A stretch of DNA of 63,901 bases, filler included, from Nitrospirae bacterium CG2_30_53_67 (GTDB lineage: Bacteria > CG2-30-53-67), in assembly GCA_001873285.1 (NCBI GenBank). It is 6 parts of 6 records of this genome, joined end to end, with 100 filler letters (N's around TTAATTAATTAA, not from the genome) between each part and the next. Parts side by side here need not be neighbours in the genome. Positions count along the whole stretch, not along the records: positions 31,216 to 41,368 come from MNYV01000087.1; 5 more parts are not named here. One strand, written 5' to 3'. The position numbers and the translations under genes were made by a program. Shown here piece by piece: positions 22,510 through 61,272 of the stretch (position 1 is the stretch's first letter; every line of letters begins with the position of its first letter). Under the pieces are notes generated by a model. It searched no databases. It worked only from the letters and a program-made list of their open reading frames with translations, and had not been told where the DNA came from.

Positions 22510-22609
22510 CCCCGTCATGCCGGAAAGTCACGGCCTTCAGGCTGGGGATCCATGGGATATCCGTCAGATCATCAGAAAAGACCGTACTTCAAGACGGGGT
22601 GTAACGGGA
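22510..22609. mobile_element. Degenerate 100-bp copy of the CCCCGTTA-ended element
   Basis: CCCCGTCATGCC…CTTCAGGCTGGGGAT…TCAGATCA…CAAGACGGGGTGTAACGGGA aligns with the reverse complement of 39200-39374 once its nested insert is removed. Confidence 0.75.
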
Positions 22610-31215: not shown

Positions 31216-31402
31216 TCCAGGGGTCGAGGGGTCAAGGGTTCAAGTGAGATACTGAAACGCAAGCAAAATCTTCAGAGAAAAACACTGGAACCCTTGGACC
31301 CTATAATCCTCGGCCCCTTATGATTTTAGCACTTCACTTGACCCCTGGAATCCTTGACCCCTTGAACCCTGATGTTTTCACCCGCTCTTTTGGAGATGAT
31401 CC
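31216..31402. repeat. Octamer-repeat elements (two adjacent pieces)
   Basis: GGGGTCGA GGGGTCAA GGGTTCAA GTGA… and TTGACCCC TGGAATCC TTGACCCC TTGAACCC TGATGTTTTCACCCG. Confidence 0.8.
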
Positions 31403-31610
31403 AATGATTTTAAATGATCATCCTAACCTCATGATCAATGTAAGATAACCCCATTAACCATCCATAATACATAGAAAATACCATTCAATGAAGTGTACGA
31501 TATTTGTTGCCGCGCCCTATATGTACCGTCCTATAAGATATATTATGTTAACTTAAACGCCCGCCTTGTTTATCTCCATTGGGTCTATGTTTAAGGGAAA
31601 ATAGGCCTGC

Positions 31611-31779
31611 GGGGCTGTTGAAAAAGTCTCTTATGGTAAATAATTTGTCATGCCCGATAAACTTGTCCCCGCATGCATTCAGCGGGGAGCGGGCATCCAG
31701 TAATACTATGAAAAACCTGGATTCCCGCCTACGCGGGAATGACGGCATGAGACCAGAAAAACACTTTTTCAACAGCCCC
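31611..31779. mobile_element. 169-bp MITE with IS1182/IS5-like ends carrying a REP doublet
   Basis: TIR GGGGCTGTTGAAAAAG / CTTTTTCAACAGCCCC, 4-bp TSD CTGC (31607-31610, 31780-31783). Confidence 0.85.
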
Positions 31780-31827
31780 CTGCCCCCTTTTATCTTTTTC
31801 TTGACTCTCATTTTATTGATGATACTA

Positions 31828-31869
31828 TTATGCATTGTGCGTTATGCATCATGCGTTATACATGGTGCA
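31828..31869 (+). repeat. Heptamer tandem repeat x6 between promoter and ATPase start
   Basis: TTATGCA TTGTGCG TTATGCA TCATGCG TTATACA TGGTGCA, downstream of a TTGACT box at 31801. Confidence 0.65.
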
Positions 31870-31890
31870 AAAATAAAAAGAAACTAAGCC

Positions 31891-33033
31891 ATGCCGGATA
31901 AAAAACTTTTCATCAACCCTTTTGTTCTCGGGCGTATCCGTCCAGGTGAGCCGTTCTGCAACAGGAAAAAAGAGCAGTCTGATCTCAGGACCCACTCTTT
32001 AAACTGTGTAGATGTTGTCCTCTATTCTTCCCGCAGATTAGGCAAGACTTCTCTTTTGCATCAGGTTTTAAATTCCATGGAACACAAGGGTTATTATGGA
32101 ATCTATGTAGATCTTGTTTCCATAACGAGCGAGAGCGATTTTATCCGGAAAGTCGTTGAGGGAATGGTTCTCGGAGTTGGAAAGGATGTGACGAGCCGAT
32201 CATTCCCAAAGAGGATCAAGGGGCTCTTCAGCCGTATCCAGCCCCAGGTGGAAATCCGGCCCGATGGTGTAACCTTCTCTATCAAATATAATAGCACCGT
32301 AAGTTTGAATTTACTGGTCGAAGATGTTTTCCATGGCTTATCCAAGTTTTTGGATGCAAGGGAGAAAAAAGCTCTGGTTGTGCTTGATGAATTTCAGCAG
32401 ATCGCCGACCTGAAAGAGAACAAAAAAATCGAGGGTCTGTTACGCGAATATATTCAAGGTGAACGGAACATCGCCTATTTTTTTGTTGGGTCGAGACGGC
32501 GGATATTAAAAGATATGTTTACAGACAAAAACAGGCCCTTTTATAAAAGTGCGTTTTCCTACCCTCTTGGAAATATTTCAAAAGACGAGCTTTCAAAATT
32601 TGTGAGGCTTCAATTTGCAGATACCGGGAAAAACTGCCCTCTGGAGATCGCCCAAGAGATTTATGATGATGTAGGAGGACACACCTATTATGTGCAAAAA
32701 CTATCGCACATTCTTTGGGATATTGCGGAAACAAAAGCGACCCCGGCGTTGTTGGCAAAGGCAAAAACCGAACTGCTCCAGTCCGAAGCTCGGGATACCT
32801 TCGAGAATATGTTTCAAGGGTTGAATCAGGGCGAAAAGAAACTCGCAAAAGCGCTGGCTTTGGAACCGACCCGTCAGCCCTACGCTGCGCCGTACCTGGC
32901 TCGTTATGAGCTTAATGCAGGGGGTGTAGGGAGAAACATAAAATCCCTATTAGATAAGGATCTGCTGGAGATCACAGAGGATAGCGTGCATCAACTCACC
33001 GATCCGCTTTTTGCAAAGTGGTGTTCGATGTAA
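31891..33033 (+). CDS. Archaeal-type/STAND-like P-loop ATPase with probable C-terminal winged helix
   Basis: NPF…FCNR, SSRRLGKTS Walker A, VVLDEFQ Walker B, FVGS, GGHTYYVQ, DPLFAKW. Confidence 0.85.
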   Translation: MPDKKLFINPFVLGRIRPGEPFCNRKKEQSDLRTHSLNCVDVVLYSSRRLGKTSLLHQVLNSMEHKGYYGIYVDLVSITSESDFIRKVVEGMVLGVGKDVTSRSFPKRIKGLFSRIQPQVEIRPDGVTFSIKYNSTVSLNLLVEDVFHGLSKFLDAREKKALVVLDEFQQIADLKENKKIEGLLREYIQGERNIAYFFVGSRRRILKDMFTDKNRPFYKSAFSYPLGNISKDELSKFVRLQFADTGKNCPLEIAQEIYDDVGGHTYYVQKLSHILWDIAETKATPALLAKAKTELLQSEARDTFENMFQGLNQGEKKLAKALALEPTRQPYAAPYLARYELNAGGVGRNIKSLLDKDLLEITEDSVHQLTDPLFAKWCSM

Positions 33034-33108
33034 GGGATCAGGGCTATACATGGGTCTTATGAACAGAACTGCGGACACGTTCAAATTGCAGAATTTTTGT
33101 GAGGACGG

Positions 33109-34365
33109 ATGAAAAGAGTTGATGATTTCCGGTTGAGGTTGGGCAAAAAAGAGCTGGTGCCGATCGTCATCGGAGCGATGGGTGTGGACATATCCATAGC
33201 AGAACTTGCGCTTACCGCCGCTCGGCTCGGCGGAATCGGCCACATCTCCGATGCCATGGTGCACATCATCACCGACCGGCGGATGAAGACGAGTTTTGTA
33301 AAGGAAAAACTCAAAAAGTACCAATACAACATCGGCAACCCGGACAAATCCGAGGTTCATTTTGATCTCGGACAATTGGCTGAGGCGACCAGACTGCATG
33401 TAGGACGGACCATGGAGGCCAAAAAGGGTGACGGCCTCATCTTCATCAATACGATGGAAAAACTTACCATGAACGCGCCGCACGAAACCCTGCGTGTGCG
33501 CCTCAGCTCGGCCATGGACGCCGGCATAGACGGCATTACCCTGAGCGCGGGTCTGCACCTGAGGTCTCTTGCCATGGTGCAGGATCATCCACGCTTTCGA
33601 GACGTAAAATTCGGCATTATTGTCTCCTCACTTCGCGCCCTGTATCTCTTCCTTCGGAAAAACTCCAGGCTGAACCGCCTCCCCGATTATATCGTGGTGG
33701 AAGGCCCGCTTGCCGGCGGGCATCTCGGTTTCGGCATGGATTGGGCGCAGTATGACCTCAAGACCATTACGGACGAGATTATCCTTGATCTCAAGCGGAA
33801 TGATCTGGACATACCGGTCATCCCTGCGGGGGGCATTTTCACAGGCACGGATGCCGTTGAATTTCTTGAGGCCGGAGCTTCGGCCGTTCAGGTGGCGACC
33901 CGTTTTGCGATCACAAAAGAAAGCGGACTGCCGGCCAAGGTTAAGCAGGAATATTTCAAGGCCGATGAGTCGGACATCGAGGTCAACATGATCTCACCCA
34001 CCGGCTATCCGATGCGCATGCTGAAGATGTGCCCGGCGATCGTTTCGGGAAACAGACCGAATTGCGAAGCCTATGGCTATCTGCTGGATGGTTCGGGCAA
34101 CTGCAGCTATAAAGATGCCTATTACCTCGAGCTGAAGAAAAACCCAGGTGAGAAAAGAATGTCAGTCGAGGGAAAAACCTGCCTCTGCACTCAAATGCGG
34201 AATTTCGGCTGCTGGACCTGCGGCCAAAACGCCTATCGGCTCAAAGAAACGACCCGGCGTCTCCCGGATGGAACCTATCGACTGCCGGCCGCGGAATTCG
34301 TTTTCAGGGATTATCAGTTCAGCGTCAATCATCAGACCAATCTTCCGGAAGAACCGGAAGGCTGA
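33109..34365 (+). CDS. Nitronate monooxygenase / FabK-like flavoprotein
   Basis: GAMGVDIS, EGPLAGGHLG, IPAGGI, VQVATRF, SPTGYP. Confidence 0.88.
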   Translation: MKRVDDFRLRLGKKELVPIVIGAMGVDISIAELALTAARLGGIGHISDAMVHIITDRRMKTSFVKEKLKKYQYNIGNPDKSEVHFDLGQLAEATRLHVGRTMEAKKGDGLIFINTMEKLTMNAPHETLRVRLSSAMDAGIDGITLSAGLHLRSLAMVQDHPRFRDVKFGIIVSSLRALYLFLRKNSRLNRLPDYIVVEGPLAGGHLGFGMDWAQYDLKTITDEIILDLKRNDLDIPVIPAGGIFTGTDAVEFLEAGASAVQVATRFAITKESGLPAKVKQEYFKADESDIEVNMISPTGYPMRMLKMCPAIVSGNRPNCEAYGYLLDGSGNCSYKDAYYLELKKNPGEKRMSVEGKTCLCTQMRNFGCWTCGQNAYRLKETTRRLPDGTYRLPAAEFVFRDYQFSVNHQTNLPEEPEG

Positions 34366-34371
34366 TCATTT

Positions 34372-35331
34372 TTATTCTTCGGAGCCGATTCGGTCCCCGA
34401 ACTTCTGTTTTTGGAACCCTTCATGACTGGTGTAATTGTTGACTTCATCCGGCGGACGGTAGCCGAGATGGCTCTGAGAATAAACCATGGTATCGAGCGG
34501 GGGTTTGCTATGACGGTTGTAGGAAAGGAGGAGTTTGACCCCGGTCATGTTCAGCTTCCCGCCTTCCGCTTCATCGCATAGATAATCCAGCGCCCCTCGT
34601 ATATTAAACGGCTCCAGCCGATAGGGACGTTGTGATATCAGCGCATCGAATATATCGTTGATGGTCACGAACTGGATGAGACTCTCGACGACTTTGACTC
34701 CCCTGGGATACCCGGAGCCGTCCATTTTCTCGTGATGGTTGAGAGCCACAAGGGCATGCATGGATTCATGTTCCCCGGTGTAATAGACCAGCAGCAGAAA
34801 ACCGATCCAGGGATGTTCATGGATATACAGGTACTGCTCGTAAGTCAGTTTTTTCGTACTCTGAAGTATCTCAAGAGGGATCCTGGACTTTCCAAAGTCA
34901 TGGGTCAGAGCGGTCGATGCCGCAGTCAGCGCCATTTTCGAATCCTGGTATAGATCCTGCGCCATGCGAGCGGTCATGATCGTCGTGATCAGTATGTGCC
35001 TGTAGGTGTAGTAATCTTTGATTTTGCAGAAATCGAGTTCCTCCAGAATATCATCGTTCAGAACCATCTCCCCGACAAGATCCAATACACGTTGTCTCAA
35101 GGTTTGCTGGTCAAAAATGATGCGGTAGTTCTCATCCTTCATGACGCGTAAGAAATCTTCCGGAAGGTGCGTCTCTTTGAGCCGGGTAGTCTTGTTGGAA
35201 GGCCGGGCGCGCTTATGCTTGATCTCGTCCAGTATGGGCCTGGTGATCGTCTCCCCCCGGCCCAAGATCAGAGTTCCCTCATGGGCATACAGGTCTTCCC
35301 GCATGACCAGAGAATTTTGGAAATCCATCAC
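34372..35331 (-). CDS. HD-GYP domain phosphohydrolase
   Basis: HDFGK, HP, HHEKMDGSGYP, DIFDALISQRPYR. Confidence 0.92.
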   Translation of the reverse strand: MMDFQNSLVMREDLYAHEGTLILGRGETITRPILDEIKHKRARPSNKTTRLKETHLPEDFLRVMKDENYRIIFDQQTLRQRVLDLVGEMVLNDDILEELDFCKIKDYYTYRHILITTIMTARMAQDLYQDSKMALTAASTALTHDFGKSRIPLEILQSTKKLTYEQYLYIHEHPWIGFLLLVYYTGEHESMHALVALNHHEKMDGSGYPRGVKVVESLIQFVTINDIFDALISQRPYRLEPFNIRGALDYLCDEAEGGKLNMTGVKLLLSYNRHSKPPLDTMVYSQSHLGYRPPDEVNNYTSHEGFQKQKFGDRIGSEE

Positions 35332-35403
35332 GATTGCCTCTTGTTAGTATTTCAGGATTATTAACCGATTAAGGGGTGGAAATCAAGATAAATCCTTCTT
35401 GCG

Positions 35404-36225
35404 TTAGTCATCCCGGCGAAAGCTGTAGCCGCCGATTTTTATCTCAAATGGAATCCAGAGCAGGCGCAAAAGGTTCAGTCTTTCAAAATCACGGTATTCT
35501 TTAAGGCCGATGGTCATCTCCCTATGCCCTTCCTGCGGCTGATCCCGGTAAGTCCCGAAGAGACGGTCCCACCAGGGAAAGAAAAATCCGAAATTGCTGT
35601 TGGTTTCCTTTACCTTCCAGGAGTGATGCACCCGGTGCATGTCCGGCGTGACCACAAATCTTCGGAGGATACGGTCAAGGGACAAGGGGATCGCCACATT
35701 CCCGTGATTGAACTGTGCAGAGGAATTCAGGATGACTTCAAAGAGCAAGACTCCGAAGGGATGAGCGCCCAATGCCGCCGCCAGCGCCGCCTTGTAAAGC
35801 ATGGAGATGAAGATCTCCAAGGGGTGAAAACGAAGGCCGGTGGTCACATCAAAGTCCAGATCGGTGTGATGGACGCGGTGGAGGCGCCAGAAGACGGGGA
35901 GCGCATGGGACATGACATGCTGCAGATAGATCGCCATGTCAAAGAAGAAGATGGTGATGAAAAAGGAGAAGACCTCAGGGAGATGAATTGCATGGAGGAT
36001 CCCCCAACCGTGATCCCTGGCATAGACCGCCGTGCTCACGGCCACGGCGCCGAGGGTGAACCGGACAAATAGCATGTCCACCGCGGTCAGCGCAAGATTG
36101 GCAAACCAGCGGCGGCCTTTGGGCTGAAGCAGGACCCTTCTCGGCCGCATGACCTCCCAGACGGCCATGACCACTAAACATCCCAGAAATATGGAAAAAC
36201 GGATCACGGACTCATGTGCAATCAT
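35404..36225 (-). CDS. Sterol desaturase / fatty-acid hydroxylase family
   Basis: His boxes HVMSH, HRVHH (twice), FNH. Confidence 0.93.
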   Translation of the reverse strand: MIAHESVIRFSIFLGCLVVMAVWEVMRPRRVLLQPKGRRWFANLALTAVDMLFVRFTLGAVAVSTAVYARDHGWGILHAIHLPEVFSFFITIFFFDMAIYLQHVMSHALPVFWRLHRVHHTDLDFDVTTGLRFHPLEIFISMLYKAALAAALGAHPFGVLLFEVILNSSAQFNHGNVAIPLSLDRILRRFVVTPDMHRVHHSWKVKETNSNFGFFFPWWDRLFGTYRDQPQEGHREMTIGLKEYRDFERLNLLRLLWIPFEIKIGGYSFRRDD

Positions 36226-36530
36226 CAGGTTCTCCCCTCCCCTGCCGCGATACAGTGATCAGCGCCGTCTTTTCCCGGAACCGGATACCCGATCAGAGGC
36301 CATACTGCCCGCGGTCCGCTCCCGGATTCATGATCATTCGAGGATCACTTTATCAGATTGACGATAAAAGAGCAAACCGGATAGAAACAACATTATCTAA
36401 ACTATTAAAATTTCTATCGCGGAATTTGGGGGCCGAGGATCTGTTTGACACGGCGCTCATTCTATTGTATTTTATTTACGACGTTTTGCCGCAAAGGCAT
36501 CTGTTCATCAGCCGGCATGGGAGAGTCACC

Positions 36531-36764
36531 ATGAATAAAGAGATCAAAGAGATGGAAAAGGTCCTTGAGATCTATACCATCGCCGCTCGTCGGGAGAAGG
36601 CAGCCTACGAGTTTTACAAGGACGTTGCCGAAAAGGTTTCAACCGAAGAAGAAAAAAAAATCCTCCTCGGACTGGCGCAGTTTGAGATGCAGCACCTCAA
36701 GCTGATGGAAAGCCATTATGAAAAGACCCTTAAAAAAATTAAAGAACTGCATAAGCAGAGCTGA
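36531..36764 (+). CDS. Small ferritin-like (half-rubrerythrin) protein
   Basis: AARREKAAYEFY…LAQFEMQH (ExxH). Confidence 0.75.
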   Translation: MNKEIKEMEKVLEIYTIAARREKAAYEFYKDVAEKVSTEEEKKILLGLAQFEMQHLKLMESHYEKTLKKIKELHKQS

Positions 36765-36797
36765 TTCTACACATGCATTTCTGGAGAGGAGCAAAAC

Positions 36798-37214
36798 ATG
36801 GCCGTTTTCAAAATCCATCCCCACCCCATCGCCGTCCACTTCTCCAACGGCCTGATTCCGGTCTCGGTTTTTTTTCTCATGGTTTTTGGGGTCACCCGGA
36901 TCCCTGACATGGAGATCGTTGCCTTTTACACCCTCTTGACCGGCACACTGGGTTCCATGCTGGCCGTGGGTACGGGACTCTTCGACTGGAAGAAGAACTA
37001 CCGCGGCGCCTGGGTCCCGGTGTTCAAGAAGAAATTGACCGCCGGCATTTTGGCTATCGTTATAGGCATGATCGCCTGCATCATCCGTTTTTTGAATCCG
37101 GAACTTCTTTATTCCATCACCCCCCTTTCCATCATATATTTGGCCCTGAATCTTTTTATCCTGGGCTGCGTGAGCATTGCCGGTTATCTGGGGGGGAGGC
37201 TCGTTTTCCAATAG
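36798..37214 (+). CDS. DUF2231-like four-TM membrane protein
   Basis: HPHPIAVHF, TGLFDW, GYLGGRLVF. Confidence 0.8.
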   Translation: MAVFKIHPHPIAVHFSNGLIPVSVFFLMVFGVTRIPDMEIVAFYTLLTGTLGSMLAVGTGLFDWKKNYRGAWVPVFKKKLTAGILAIVIGMIACIIRFLNPELLYSITPLSIIYLALNLFILGCVSIAGYLGGRLVFQ

Positions 37215-37226
37215 TGAGGAGAATAT

Positions 37227-38051
37227 ATGGCCTTCCTAAATTACTTTAAACCTGTTCCGTCATGGAGCTCTAATCAAGTCCTTGATTTTATAAAAGATAA
37301 GAATCCTGATGAATATCAACTTATAGACGTGCGTCAGCCTTCAGAGTATCAAGGAGAACACCTGCCTGGCGCCCGTTTGATCCCCATCGGGGAACTCTCC
37401 TCACGTCTGAACGAACTCGACCCGAAAAAACCGACCATCACCTATTGAAAAGCCGGCGTACGCAGCCGGTCGGCTGCAGGCATGCTCTCCGGCGCCGGTT
37501 TCAAGCAGGTCTTCACCATGACAGGCGGGATCGATGTCTGGAACGGCCTCAGGGCATCCGGCGCACCCGATGCGGGGATGGCCGTGTTTTCAGATGCCGA
37601 CACGGCCGAAGACCTGCTGGCCTTGGCGTGGGTCCTGGAGGAAGGTTCCCGCAAATTCTACGCCGGCGTATCAAGATCCCTGAAGGATGACGGGGCCGTA
37701 AAACTGTTTCAACAACTCACAGCCGCCGAGGAGAAACACAAGGAATCTCTTGTCCGGCTCTATGGAGAGATTTCCGGGTCGCCTCTGCCTGTTTTTTCTG
37801 AATTGGAAGGCTCCGAAGGCCTGATGGAAGGAGGGATACCGGTCGGCGCCGGACTCTCCTGGGCTAAGAACAAGGGCGCAAGAGAAATCCTTCAGTTCTC
37901 CATGGCCATGGAGACCAATGCCTACGACCTCTATCTGAAGATGATCCCCCGGATGACGGATGAAAAATCCGCGCGGGTTTTTAAAACCTTGGCTGAGGAA
38001 GAAAAAGGGCATCTGGACAAACTGGGTAAGCTGCTGGAGCAAAGGGTCTGA
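37227..38051 (+). CDS. Selenoprotein: rhodanese (Sec at TGA 37446-37448) fused to a ferritin-like/rubrerythrin domain, 274 aa
   Basis: IDVRQPSEY…HLPGA…TITY-U-KAGVRS; both ORF halves in frame; hairpin GCAGCC-GGTC-GGCTGC after the UGA; EEKH and EEKGH diiron-type motifs. Confidence 0.85.
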
Positions 38052-38076
38052 CCCCGGAATACACTAAAAAATATAA

Positions 38077-38118
38077 GGGGTCAAGGGGCCAAGGATTCCA
38101 GGGGTCAAGTGAAGTGCT
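38077..38118 (+). repeat. Octamer-repeat element end
   Basis: GGGGTCAA GGGGCCAA GGATTCCA GGGGTCAA GTGAAGTGCT. Confidence 0.75.
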
Positions 38119-38231
38119 GATCCACCAGAAAGCCGGCGCTCCCCGGCGTGTGTCCCGGGAGCAGATGGGCCATAACCTCCATGCGGCTCTTCCCGATCCG
38201 GAAGACCTCGCCTTTTCAAGAGGCATGAAAT

Positions 38232-39403
38232 TCATGGCGATTCCTTTTTCTCCCGTGGGGAGGCCGGGAACCTGGATTGAATCTCTTCGAGTGTCTTTTG
38301 AAAGAGATCCATCATGGGGCCGTTTAGGGCCACCGCACGGCGGGCTGCATCCAGGGCCTCCTCTCCCCTCCCCTGTTCCATGAGCACCTGGGCCAGATTA
38401 TTCCATGCCGGCCCGGAATCCGGATGCAGGCGGGCCGCCTGCCTGAAGGCTTCCTCCGCAGTCGTGAGTTCACCCGATGCATAAAAACTATTGCCCAAAC
38501 CCATGAGTGCGCCGAGGCTCCCGGGCCAGCGCGCGAGCGCCGTTTGATAGCCGGTCACCGCGGCAGTCCATTGCCGGGCCTGTTCCAGTCCCAGCACGGC
38601 CATGAGATAATCTTCCTCATCGGCGGTGGCAGGAAATTCTTCCGGCCGTAAAACCAGCAGTCCCCAATACCCGCTCCTTAACCAAGTGTTTTTAAAAACC
38701 CGGAAGGATAAGTGTTCCCGTGGTGTTTTTCCGGAATGAAGGATGATGGTATCTTCAGGCAGGTCATAGCCGACGACGACTGCATAATGCCACATGGGAT
38801 ACCAGGAGAGTCCAAGATTCTGAAGGACCATGACCGGATGACCGTCGGCCACCTCCGTGAGCATGGCCTCGATCCCTGAAATCGGATAGGCGATCCGGCC
38901 GTGACGCCGTGCCGCGCTGATCAGCGAAGTCTGAAGGCTCCCCTTACGGACGGGCGTATAGACCTCGGATTCGAGTTCTTCAGGGGTGACCGAGATCCCG
39001 CGGGAACGGAGCAGCATGGCGAGGGCCGCAGGACCGCATTGATGCTCACTCTGGGCGTAAAATGGAACCGCGCTGATCTCAGTCTTGGCAGGTCTCCCCT
39101 CACCATACGCCGGCAAGGAGCCTGATCGCAGCCCGGTACAGCCGGTAGGCAGGATACTCAACAAGAGGACGAGCAGGGCGCAGCAACATCGGCAATCAAC
39201 CCCGTTACTCACCGTCTTGTAAGACGGGGCTTTCTTGCTGATCTGATATTGCATATGCCATTCACCACATTGGAAGTTCACTGTTGCGTGACAGGAGTCT
39301 GAACTTCTGACAGAGGAAACTTCTAACGTGGTTCATCCCCAGCCTGAAGTCCGGGGCTTTCTGGTGTAACGGGGTCAACACGGTAGTCCGCTCTACGAGC
39401 CAT
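38232..39403 (-). pseudogene. PA2778-family C39 cysteine peptidase-TPR lipoprotein, interrupted in its signal peptide
   Basis: QCGPAALA, WHYAVVVGYD, TPRs; original ATG at 39403 (GGAG RBS) returns to frame when the 175-bp insert and one TSD are removed. Confidence 0.8.
39200..39374. mobile_element. 175-bp CCCCGTTAC…GTAACGGGG element with a nested 67-bp element
   Basis: TSD TCAA (39196-39199, 39375-39378); inner element 39265-39331 with 12/14 TIR and TSD TTCA. Confidence 0.9.
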
Positions 39404-39414
39404 CGGCCACTCCG

Positions 39415-39831
39415 TTACCGCCTGGGGGCTGGGTGGTTGACAAATGAGTAGACGCGTGTCAGTCCCAGAAGGTCCGTAATCAACAAAACAATAAAGACGA
39501 ACAAGGCCGCTCCGATCAGCGCCCCCACGGCATCACCACCGGCGGGGAGCCGGTCCATCATACCGGAAATTCGGTTCACCTCGGTATCGGTCAAACTGTT
39601 GATGCGCGCCCGAGCTTCCTCGGGCCGGACACCCTGCTGAACCATGACGGTCTGAACATCCTGCCGGTTCAGGAAATTCACAAGTCGTGTGCGGGCATTC
39701 CGTCCCTCTGTGGTGTTCAGCGCCGTTTCCGTCCCCACCATGGCTGCGCGGGCCGTGTGCACGGAAAAGTCGAGCATGGAATAAGAAATAATCAGGAAAA
39801 AACAGACCGGCTTGGCAATCGAACGCATCAT
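39415..39831 (-). CDS. PA2779-family protein
   Basis: AAMVGTE…GVRPEEARARINSLTDTE…LPAGGD…LLITDLLG; upstream of the PA2778-like gene. Confidence 0.88.
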   Translation of the reverse strand: MMRSIAKPVCFFLIISYSMLDFSVHTARAAMVGTETALNTTEGRNARTRLVNFLNRQDVQTVMVQQGVRPEEARARINSLTDTEVNRISGMMDRLPAGGDAVGALIGAALFVFIVLLITDLLGLTRVYSFVNHPAPRR

Positions 39832-39949
39832 ACCATTCTCCTTCTCTGATGATCAGTTTTTTAAGATATGGATTTTTCCGAACCGTTTTAAAAAGCTCTT
39901 ATGTTTGTTATGTATAACAATTCAATTTCATTGTCAATAGGTTTGTCAT

Positions 39950-40204
39950 TCAGAAAGAGACGGGGGAGACGCTGTGGAGGAACCATGTCATGGCCGTCTC
40001 ATGGTAATAGATATGATAGATCTTCCGGTCATCGCCCTTGAGCCGGAACCACCGCCTTGTCGTCTTCTCCTCCACATCCTGTTCGACCCGCCGGTCGAGA
40101 ACTTCGACCACGTTGATTTTTTCACCCCGGAAAACAAAGGCCATCGGGCTTTCCTCGCCCCGATACCCTGCATAGGCCGTAACTTTAATCTCTTGGTCGC
40201 CCAT
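39950..40204 (-). CDS. Small conserved hypothetical protein (DUF6504-like)
   Basis: YAGYRGEESP…F…VVEVLDR. Confidence 0.65.
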   Translation of the reverse strand: MGDQEIKVTAYAGYRGEESPMAFVFRGEKINVVEVLDRRVEQDVEEKTTRRWFRLKGDDRKIYHIYYHETAMTWFLHSVSPVSF

Positions 40205-40330
40205 TACCGGAATTTTCCCCGTCCGAAAACAAGGCCCTTCTCCATCTGTTTTCCGGCTGCGTCCTCGCTGACGGATGCCGGCAGGTAAACCGTTTCCAAC
40301 TCCTTGAGGAGTTCTGCCTCGGTCCTGTCC

Positions 40331-40978
40331 TTAAAGATGCCGCAAGGACCGCCACCCGAAGTGGAGAAACCAGATGCCGAAAAAGATCAAAAACAGGCCG
40401 CAGAATAGAATCATCCGCTGATAAAACGGCGTGCTGATCCATGACCTGCCTCTGCTGACGGCAAAGGAGATGGCGCTGTACCATAGGAGATCTGCAAGGA
40501 TATGACCGGAAAAAAACACAAGCACCCCTGCAAGTCCATACTTCCATGCCGCGGCCAGATACCCCATCCCGATGGTCGCCCACCAGAGACTCCAGTAGGG
40601 GTTGGCGAGGCTCACCACTATTCCGGTAAGCACCGGCCTCCCGGCATCCGGAGCGTTTGTTTTTTGATGTTCCGCAGAAGGGCTCATCTTTTGTGAATCC
40701 CTGATCATTGTGGAGCCGAACCCACAGAGGACAACCCCTCCGGCCATTCCAAAGATTCCGGCGATGACAGGTCTCACGATCCATGGCCCAAGTCCGGCCA
40801 ATATTAAAACAACCAGGGCCAGTTCCAGAATACCGTGCCCCAGTACAATCAGAGGCCCTGTCCGGAATCCTTTTTTTGAAGCATCGGCAATCGTCACGGT
40901 AAGCAAGGGGCCCGGCATCAATGCCCCTGAAAGGGCAATGATAAAAGAGGTAACAAATATCAGAATCCATCCCTGCAT
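40331..40978 (-). CDS. LysE-family translocator
   Basis: ALMPGPL, GHGILE, SLANPYWSLWW. Confidence 0.92.
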   Translation of the reverse strand: MQGWILIFVTSFIIALSGALMPGPLLTVTIADASKKGFRTGPLIVLGHGILELALVVLILAGLGPWIVRPVIAGIFGMAGGVVLCGFGSTMIRDSQKMSPSAEHQKTNAPDAGRPVLTGIVVSLANPYWSLWWATIGMGYLAAAWKYGLAGVLVFFSGHILADLLWYSAISFAVSRGRSWISTPFYQRMILFCGLFLIFFGIWFLHFGWRSLRHL

Positions 40979-41126
40979 AGGGAGACATATTATAGTGTTC
41001 CCGTGCTTTTTACAAGATTAACACGCTGAACGGTCAATAATCTCTGTGACAACTTCTGCGGACAATCCAAGACAGGATAACGAGCAGAAATTGCCGAAGG
41101 CTCTTATGAGTGGTATAGTTATTAAT

Positions 41127-41313
41127 ATTCTCGAAATAGAATAGACATAGTTCATAGAATCTCCCCTTGCCCCTCAGAGGGATAACTCCCCCTTGCCCCC
41201 TCTTAAATAAGAGGGGGGAAAGCCTTTTTTAGAAAAGGGAGGTTAGAGCCTGCCCTCAAATGGGTTTATCGGGGGAGGGATTTTCGATATGATGTCATTT
41301 CTATTATGAGAAC
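41127..41313. repeat. REP-type palindrome cluster inside an inverted-repeat element; right end recurs at ~45393-45428
   Basis: TCCCCCTTGCCCCCTCTTAAATAAGAGGGGG; TTCTCGAAATAGAA…TTCTATTATGAGAA. Confidence 0.55.
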
Positions 41314-41468
41314 CTTATTAATTCATGGAAAAGAGCATGGTTGAAAAACGGCAGCAGGACAAGTGCCANNNNNNNNNNNNNNNNNNNNNNNNNNNNNNNN
41401 NNNNNNNNNNNNTTAATTAATTAANNNNNNNNNNNNNNNNNNNNNNNNNNNNNNNNNNNNNNNNNNNN

Positions 41469-61008: not shown

Positions 61009-61272
61009 GGGGTCAAGGGTTCAAGGATTCCAGGGGTCAAGTGAACCCCGTTAGAGGTTGTCCTCTAACGGGGTGAAGTGCTCAAACACTACAAGGAGTT
61101 AAAGGAAGGGCCCCAGTCTTATCAATTATGATTGGAGATTTACAAAATAACAAAAAGATTTCCTGGAGAAGAAAGATAGTGATATCGAGGAGGTTGAGCG
61201 GATGCTCAAGGCACTGATCAAATCACTGGAAAACAAACACTTGACCCCTTGAACTCTGGAATCCTCGAACCC
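61009..61272 (+). pseudogene. Decayed four-helix-bundle (23S rRNA IVP / bAvd-like) gene between inverted octamer arrays
   Basis: MLKHYKELK…SYQL*LEIYKITKRFPGEER* then DIEEVERMLKALIKSLENKHLTP*; four octamers on each side in opposite orientation. Confidence 0.8.
61046..61073. mobile_element. 28-bp palindromic micro-insertion
   Basis: TGAA-CCCCGTTAGAGG-TTGT-CCTCTAACGGGG-TGAA; empty site GTCAAGTGAAGTGCT at 38104-38118. Confidence 0.9.

Follow-up and report, generated by a model that had tools for sequence, protein, structure and literature searches.

The 5' end of a gene for a predicted lipoprotein peptidase in Nitrospirae bacterium CG2_30_53_67 has likely been remodelled by tiny non-autonomous transposable elements that inserted one after another. 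The gene comes from the metagenome-assembled genome (MAG) GCA_001873285.1 (G000 in our labels), which has 183 contigs, a size of 2.37 Mb and a completeness of 95%. The window, i.e. the whole stretch of 63,901 nucleotides that was analysed, consists of contigs of this genome chained with N spacers, and the locus lies on contig C148, corresponding to window positions 31216-41368. In brief, an outer element sits within the signal peptide codons of the gene, and a smaller inner element sits within the outer one. The present-day open reading frame (ORF) begins inside the outer element. We lean slightly towards a gene that is still functional and translated from this donated start, ATG 39254. The features, with positions in the window, are as follows.

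38232-39254, minus strand: present-day ORF of the lipoprotein peptidase, 340 codons, its ATG (39254-39252) inside the outer element
39138-39140, minus strand: lipobox cysteine codon TGT (L-P-T-G-C); the orthologs have their lipobox at the same position
39196-39199, no strand assigned: TCAA target-site duplication, gene-proximal copy; the second copy is at 39375-39378
39200-39374, minus strand: outer element, 175 bp (104 bp without the inner element), ends CCCCGTTAC and GTAACGGGG
39261-39264, no strand assigned: TTCA, duplicated at the target site of the inner element and repeated at 39332-39335
39265-39331, minus strand: inner element, 67 bp, ends CCACATTGGAAGTT and AACTTCTAACGTGG, a decayed form of the family end CCCCGTTAGAAGT
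39323-39325, minus strand: TAG stop in the inner element, at which the remnant of 26 codons running from the old ATG ends
39375-39403, minus strand: old 5' end of the gene, with the ATG at 39403 and the codons to V-D; it includes the distal TCAA
39391-39406, no strand assigned: 16-nt repeat CTCTACGAGCCATCGG (as read on the plus strand), carrying the old ATG and the A-R-R codons
22510-22609, plus strand: second copy of the outer family, diverged; it separates two co-directional genes on the minus strand, and no duplication is recognisable

The arms of the outer element (39199-39208 and 39366-39375) are complementary in 10 of 10 positions, and TCAA stands on both sides. The original prediction had placed a 175-bp element with this duplication at 39200-39374, and had stated that its removal together with one TCAA restores a frame of 993 nt. 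Both statements hold: removal by coordinates gives an ORF of 330 codons with zero internal stops. The insertion point lies nine codons after the old ATG at 39403, between bases 2 and 3 of an Asp codon that belongs to the n-region of the signal peptide. Taken without the inner element, the outer element and its duplication amount to 108 nt, or 36 codons, in frame and free of stops. Of the outer element's three sense frames a single one has no stop, and this is the one in use; the first insertion therefore extended the n-region in frame. The element also contains the two hairpins that had been predicted, at 39212-39227 and 39337-39356.

The nested 67-bp element with its TTCA duplication was likewise found where it had been predicted. 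Its arms are 15 nt long and complementary in 13 positions (87%), and the better side reads CCACGTTAGAAGTT. Removing the inner element and one TTCA leaves a stop-free ORF of 366 codons from the old ATG. In place, the inner element and its duplication add 71 nt, which shift the frame and bring in the TAG, and the old start therefore yields 26 residues only. The frame is thus broken by the inner element alone and not by the outer one. The original prediction had both elements breaking the signal peptide; both do interrupt its codons, but the outer one does so in frame. As a whole sequence the inner element is unique in the genome. Its ends are similar to those of G000:C182:5117-5181 and C41:2897-2976, and to copies in G001, a congener with a completeness of 97%, and in G004, a genome of the same bacterial family.

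The 104 bp that remain of the outer element once the inner element is removed align end to end with positions 22510-22609, with 80 of 105 columns identical (76%), in agreement with the match that had been predicted. On the strand of its neighbours, one of which is pssA-like, the 22510-22609 copy reads as a hairpin followed by a T-rich run between the genes, and it might be an internal attenuator.

Both elements are present in all eight assemblies compared, namely four public runs (one contig each, 2015-2017) and four near-identical metagenome contigs, with 0-4 single nucleotide polymorphisms (SNPs) over ~1.2 kb. The doubly interrupted allele is therefore not an assembly artefact. The stretch is contained in 24 runs, labelled as groundwater or aquifer metagenomes, and there is no RNA dataset among these. 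No excision joints or loose ends were found in four runs, in the form of assembled contigs, which drop rare variants.

A homolog search returned 3853 proteins at E 1e-20 or better. The closest homolog outside the own population, P0002, is 85% identical and has 319 residues. Its N-terminus reads MADYRVD and continues into WRFCCALLV (WRFCCALLVLLLSIL..GC) without a gap, i.e. the two flanks of the insert are joined. Relative to this close ortholog the insert is therefore an insertion, and its borders are where the repeats place them. The N-terminus reconstructed by removal of the elements is thus found uninterrupted in P0002, and the reconstruction is right. The original prediction would have been refuted by orthologs lacking this N-terminus, and so the comparison speaks in its favour. 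A second ortholog, P0003 (79% identical, 350 residues), is intact and has a filled site. It begins MQYQI.KKAPS...NGVD, which corresponds to element-encoded residues of the own protein. The first eleven residues differ once; a 10-residue indel comes next, and after it both proteins share the N-G-V-D junction and run into the hydrophobic core. Searching with the element-encoded N-terminal region for further proteins gave P0003 itself only. A metagenome scan for DNA encoding P0002 or P0003 gave four loci identical to the window, the next relatives being at 52% or less, and a genome scan with P0003 gave 63% identity at best.

We suggest the following course of events. A 104-bp CCCCGTTAC-ended element entered the Asp codon, duplicating TCAA and adding 36 in-frame codons. 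A 67-bp element with related ends then entered the first element, duplicating TTCA, shifting the frame and bringing the TAG. Both may have been mobilised in trans by a DDE-type transposase making 4-bp staggered cuts. Translation from ATG 39254 would give a prolipoprotein in which a longer positive n-region precedes the original hydrophobic core and lipobox. The old ATG may itself have arrived with the separate 16-nt repeat.

The host gene is predicted to encode a lipoprotein cysteine peptidase of the PA2778 family, as judged from its domains, its neighbour and the predicted lipoprotein signal. The open frame reaches further up than the present-day start, to a GTG at 39281, and the ORF 38232-39281 matches Peptidase_C39_2 (PF13529, E 3.5e-13) and TPR families in Pfam. 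Homologs are named 'PA2778 family cysteine peptidase' by the sources. The upstream neighbour on the same strand (39415-39831, minus) encodes a DUF6627 (PA2779-like) protein. The orthologs of related genomes start with a few charged residues, after which come a hydrophobic core and a lipobox with Cys at its end.

The view that the gene still works, which we hold with slight preference, rests on the reading frame and on P0003. The 340-codon ORF is free of stops and frameshifts, and the database gene call P0001, the cluster representative of the own protein, starts at ATG 39254. The N-terminus provided by the element, as read from the sequence, has an n-region with four Lys/Arg and one Asp ahead of the old hydrophobic core and lipobox, and in the predicted mRNA fold ATG 39254 lies outside the strong stems. 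The original prediction had presented the gene as broken. This is true of the old start, which is cut to 26 residues, but not of the 340-codon ORF from the element ATG, with an N-terminus as in P0003.

Several findings weigh against a working gene. ATG 39254 is preceded by a weak Shine-Dalgarno match (GGTGA, 7 nt upstream). In P0001 the lipobox Cys is replaced by Gly, the sole residue in which it differs from the translation of the window, and this hints at relaxed constraint; the TGT codon is kept in all eight assemblies. The congener G001 lacks the whole locus and matches the 5.3-kb region solely at the flanking repeats, and the gene is therefore dispensable. It is accordingly quite possible, if short of an even chance, that we are looking at a pseudogene, inactivated by the inner element, with an open frame that has simply not decayed and an in-element start that is an artefact of the gene caller. 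The 26-residue product of the old start, the weak Shine-Dalgarno match, the gap of 69 nt between the TAG and the ATG, the lipobox Cys lost in one database variant and the locus missing from G001 would all fit this, and neither the duplications nor the outer repeat have yet acquired a mismatch, as a recent event would allow. Set against this, there is no stop or frameshift in 340 codons, and only this allele occurs in eight assemblies that do differ by SNPs elsewhere. P0003, at 21% divergence, is intact from the same element-encoded residues, which is hard to explain if the start is useless.

If the gene does function from ATG 39254, a nested second hit need not kill a gene when the first element carries a usable start. 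The locus also matters for annotation, as the database start is inside a transposable element and a pipeline might report either an intact gene or a pseudogene.

The bearing of P0003 on selection depends on how the two filled sites arose. One insertion shared by descent between the own lineage and that of P0003 may have taken place but is not proven. The best tree speaks against it, joining P0002 and P0003 as sisters (support 87/82, branch length 0.017); the identities in the mature region are 84% between the own protein and P0002, 79% between the own protein and P0003 and 83% between P0002 and P0003. With P0002 and P0003 as sisters two events are needed, either an old insertion and a precise loss in the P0002 line or two hits. 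It is a further weakness that the junctions of P0002 and P0003 are known at the protein level alone; the P0003 locus may or may not include the inner element.

Two independent hits at one hot spot are in our estimate rather unlikely, and P0003 would then be uninformative on selection after insertion. This possibility draws on the best tree, which pairs an empty with a filled site, and on the 10-residue indel in the element-encoded stretch between the own protein and P0003. TCAA is also duplicated by an unrelated family member at G001:C146, and this type of site is therefore favoured. On the other hand, the first eleven element-encoded residues of the own protein and P0003 differ only once, as against 76% identity between the two copies in the own genome, and the N-G-V-D junction is identical in both proteins. 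Moreover, a tree joining the own protein with P0003 is not rejected (p-AU 0.09).

The elements belong to a dispersed family of 28-200 bp with ends CCCCGTTA (also written CCCCGTTAG, or CCCCGTTAGA(A/G)...). Its members have ~13 terminal bases in common and their cores are unrelated. The smallest, of 28-32 bp, consist of two ends and a loop and are bare hairpins. The own genome contains 23 inverted end pairs, 25-122 bp apart, with ends that match 11 of 12 or 12-14 of 14 positions. The pattern CCCCGTTAGAR..YTCTAACGGGG was found in three of 41 genomes: 13 times in the own genome, 5 times in the same genus and 8 times in the same family, with 0 matches for the reversed control. Counts of the 11-mer end and of its reversed control were 41 and 1 in G001, 86 and 4 in G004, 13 and 3 in G006, 12 and 8 in G002, and 0 and 5 in G003, i.e. 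the end is enriched in four of the five family genomes tested. By these counts the element family is lineage-restricted, with members in this bacterial family only.

In G004 the CCCCGTTAGA ends are densest (86 against 4 in the control) and often clustered within a few hundred bases, for example at C89:6500-7100 and C90:300-2700; this genome gave no DDE_Tnp_1 match. A stretch of 1.3 kb between inverted ends on contig C93 of G004 was considered and turned out to hold a gene for a secreted protein, not a transposase.

Eleven other family elements of the own genome were checked and none was shown to interrupt a gene; three lie outside any stop-free frame of at least 80 codons and eight inside one. 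The 65-bp relative of the inner element on C182, the only one of the eleven viewed closely, lies in the 5' leader of a nuoF-like gene.

Perfect 4-bp direct repeats flank both window elements, 8 of 17 elements in one set and 4 of 13 in another, the chance being 1 in 256 per element. In the own-genome set 15 of 23 have them. Thirteen of these are copies of two hairpins inside a larger repeat and therefore count as about two events. Elements that lack a perfect duplication have none or three of four bases, as older copies would show. The duplicated tetranucleotides are TCAA, TTGA, TTCA, TGAA, TAAA, TTTA, CTCA, CTTG, CTTA, CAAG and TAGA. Such varied 4-bp duplications, together with inverted ends, suggest cut-and-paste or copy-paste insertion with a 4-bp stagger. 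Their recurrence points to MITEs (miniature transposable elements with inverted repeats) of the transposase type and not to IS200/IS605.

Some of our searches count against this. The outer subfamily has two copies in this genome, and no further copy was found in eight other genomes of the family; weak matches in these eight were on inspection unrelated, apparently coding sequence. The pattern CCCCGTTAC..GTAACGGGG has one match among the 41 genomes (G023). No transposase with CCCCGTTA ends nearby was found at the three PF01609 and three PF01797 matches of the own genome, and there were no such ends near 12 PF01609 loci in the family. The PF13358 (DDE_3) profile had no match in the own genome. 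The genomes are fragmented MAGs, and repeats are often unassembled in MAGs, which bears on searches for a transposase partner. A literature search found the end motifs in no relevant context, with only unrelated primers among the 15 best of 236 papers listed, and Rfam gave no match in five repeat-bearing loci, carriers of the 16-nt repeat included.

The original prediction had likened the hairpins of the outer element to IS200/IS605. The IS200/IS605 family is not known to make terminal inverted repeats or target duplications, and its derived palindromic elements insert 3' of one fixed short motif. REP/REPIN repeats, which go with a RAYT transposase, are short hairpin repeats scattered in the genome, sometimes as doublets. 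It is very unlikely that a tyrosine (HUH/Y1) transposase moved our elements as hairpin repeats, be they derived from IS200/IS605 or of the REP/REPIN type with a RAYT. They do resemble both. The two stem-loops of the outer element correspond to the subterminal hairpins of IS200/IS605-derived palindromic elements, and many members of the family consist of a hairpin of 28-32 bp and nothing else, short and scattered like REP/REPIN repeats. The genome also holds Y1_Tnp genes (three PF01797 matches). Terminal inverted repeats and 4-bp direct duplications nevertheless recur, and the flanking tetranucleotide varies by copy, unlike in IS200/IS605-derived elements. The target duplications also set them apart from REP/REPIN repeats, and the conserved GTAG head of the latter was not recognised. 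The complete Y1 gene of the own genome, on C69, is RAYT-like and flanked by another inverted repeat of 34 nt, GGGGTCAGACATTGATA.., which has 10 copies, and a further, different repeat stands ahead of the two partial Y1 genes. The likeness to IS200/IS605 is therefore not supported.

The complete Y1 gene (G000:C69:15246-16290, locus L147) encodes a Y1-transposase-like protein of 326 residues with a long C-terminal extension and lies between the GGGGTCAGACATTGATA.. repeats; the locus looks like a REP/RAYT-type system unrelated to the window elements. Two contig ends, G000:C109:43350-43673 and C125:13480-13770, carry the same truncated Y1 gene after tandem copies of GGAACAAATAGGGACAGCGCCCATTTTTACTTG, probably a collapsed multi-copy element.

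The composite of both elements is predicted to fold strongly in mRNA sense (-61.2 kcal/mol, z -4.08), with the terminal repeat closing the structure, two hairpins on either side of the middle and the inner element as a long stem. On the opposite strand there is one hairpin followed by a T-rich run, which was scored as terminator-like. A native structured leader, with an attenuator or regulatory hairpins in place of mobile DNA, could show such a fold and such a terminator-like hairpin, but we regard it as highly improbable: the empty site in the 85% ortholog P0002, where exactly this stretch is missing, contradicts it, a 76% copy lies at an unrelated locus, the ends and duplications match a dispersed family, and Rfam has no match in 38000-41000.

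Among other points, PMC10969869 describes prokaryotic MITEs as elements that stay below 500 bp, carry 4-30 bp inverted repeats, are flanked by direct repeats and are mobilised in trans by the transposase of an insertion sequence. As elements inserted within genes in frame it names foremost the Rickettsia palindromic elements (RPE), and also ERIC, QMITE1, BOX and Anabaena MITEb/e (PMC10969869). Judged by length, inverted repeats, 4-bp duplications, a dispersed family and the lack of a transposase gene, the window elements are MITEs in the structural sense. They share with MITEs the size, the terminal inverted repeats, the 4-bp repeats, the lack of coding capacity, the dispersed copies and the stable hairpin transcripts, the latter as predicted here. 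They differ in that the searched MAGs yielded no parent insertion sequence, and in that the members share ~13 terminal bases only and go down to 28-32 bp.

With RPE the elements share that they are small, palindromic, non-coding mobile repeats that lie within a gene and are read through in frame; for the outer element this amounts to 36 stop-free codons. In-frame, stop-free insertion of the RPE kind is seen for the outer element and not for the inner one. The family-wide conserved peptide and the repeated in-frame insertions into genes that mark RPE were not found; outside this gene, the conserved element-encoded peptide is seen in a single ortholog. Further differences are the host, here an uncultured groundwater bacterium, the unrelated sequence, the position in a cleavable signal peptide, and the nested second element, which breaks the frame, with the start now at an element ATG. 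In its way of working the outer insertion resembles an RPE, without belonging to the RPE family.

A MITE within a signal peptide is a kind of event that is already known, and some of the details are unusual. Particular to this locus are the empty-site ortholog, the nested frame-breaking hit, the start relocated into the element, which a diverged ortholog has as well, and the minute sizes in the family. With its empty-site ortholog the locus is a clear case that adds to growing evidence that small mobile repeats can settle safely in the n-region of signal peptides. The locus also defines a previously undescribed element family, restricted to one lineage, with 4-bp duplications and members down to 28 bp.

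The old start has a history of its own. The original prediction had taken the 'MARR' start as ancestral. This did not hold, as the ATG lies within the 16-nt repeat CTCTACGAGCCATCGG, which the 85% identical ortholog P0002 lacks. Removing the repeat from the gene leaves an in-frame GTG that gives M-ADYRVD, the same as P0002; with the repeat, the gene gains an ATG six bases after GGAG. At up to one mismatch CTCTACGAGCCATCGG occurs 24 times in the own genome, and the congener has 10 copies; the reversed control is seen 0-1 times. Exact copies number 18, of which 13 are at one fixed place in a ~330-bp repeat and five in different contexts; other copies of the ~330-bp repeat are without CTCTACGAGCCATCGG. 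In all, it occurs in at least six unrelated contexts in the own genome. It has no inverted repeats. The ORFs that follow it are mostly of 3-28 codons, and CTCTACGAGCCATCGG is therefore no conserved gene start.

Two orthologous sites show precise presence and absence of the repeat between the congeners, one in each direction. It is filled at G000:C132:10755-10770 and empty at the orthologous G001:C103, with flanks 95% identical, and it is filled at G001:C142:17580-17595 and empty at the orthologous G000:C12. All filled sites fit an insert of 15 nt with one duplicated C. From these comparisons, CTCTACGAGCCATCGG at the old start is probably a third, separate micro-insertion. The data flag a 16-nt insertion polymorphism. 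No convincing pairs of 16-mer halves split by a larger insert were found, and the 16-mer sequence did not occur in any paper of the library searched.

We tentatively speculate that the start of this gene has been remade three times by mobile DNA, and that the 16-nt unit may be a new kind of mobile sequence. If CTCTACGAGCCATCGG is inserted by a dedicated mechanism, even the smallest bacterial transposable element described would be much larger than it. The 16-mer and the start in the outer element would then be examples of micro-elements acting as exchangeable translation-start cassettes.

A repeat of ~330 bp is found at window positions 61046-61073 (G000:C160:6525-6552) and on about 12 other contigs, e.g. 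at G000:C60:16200-16560 and C127:6050-6450. It has long inverted ends of GGGTCAAGG-like units and two CCCCGTTAGAG hairpins of 28-31 bp, each between TGAA or TTCA. Of the short motifs at one of its ends, GGTTCTTCTCC is found 78 times in the genome and TAGTGGGTAA 67 times. In the distant genome G015 a variant of the 16-mer (CCTATGG..) is present four times, within another repeat.

Around the peptidase gene, no sigma-70-like promoter was found in 38900-39900. Downstream of the gene, at 38076-38120, there are GGGTCAAGG arrays, a fragment of a further repeat family. Towards the contig end, at 41150-41290, lies a fragment of a '..CTCGAATGGGTTTATCGGGGGAGGGATTTTCG' element, which belongs to another repeat family and, together with the GGGTCAAGG arrays, flanks the operon.

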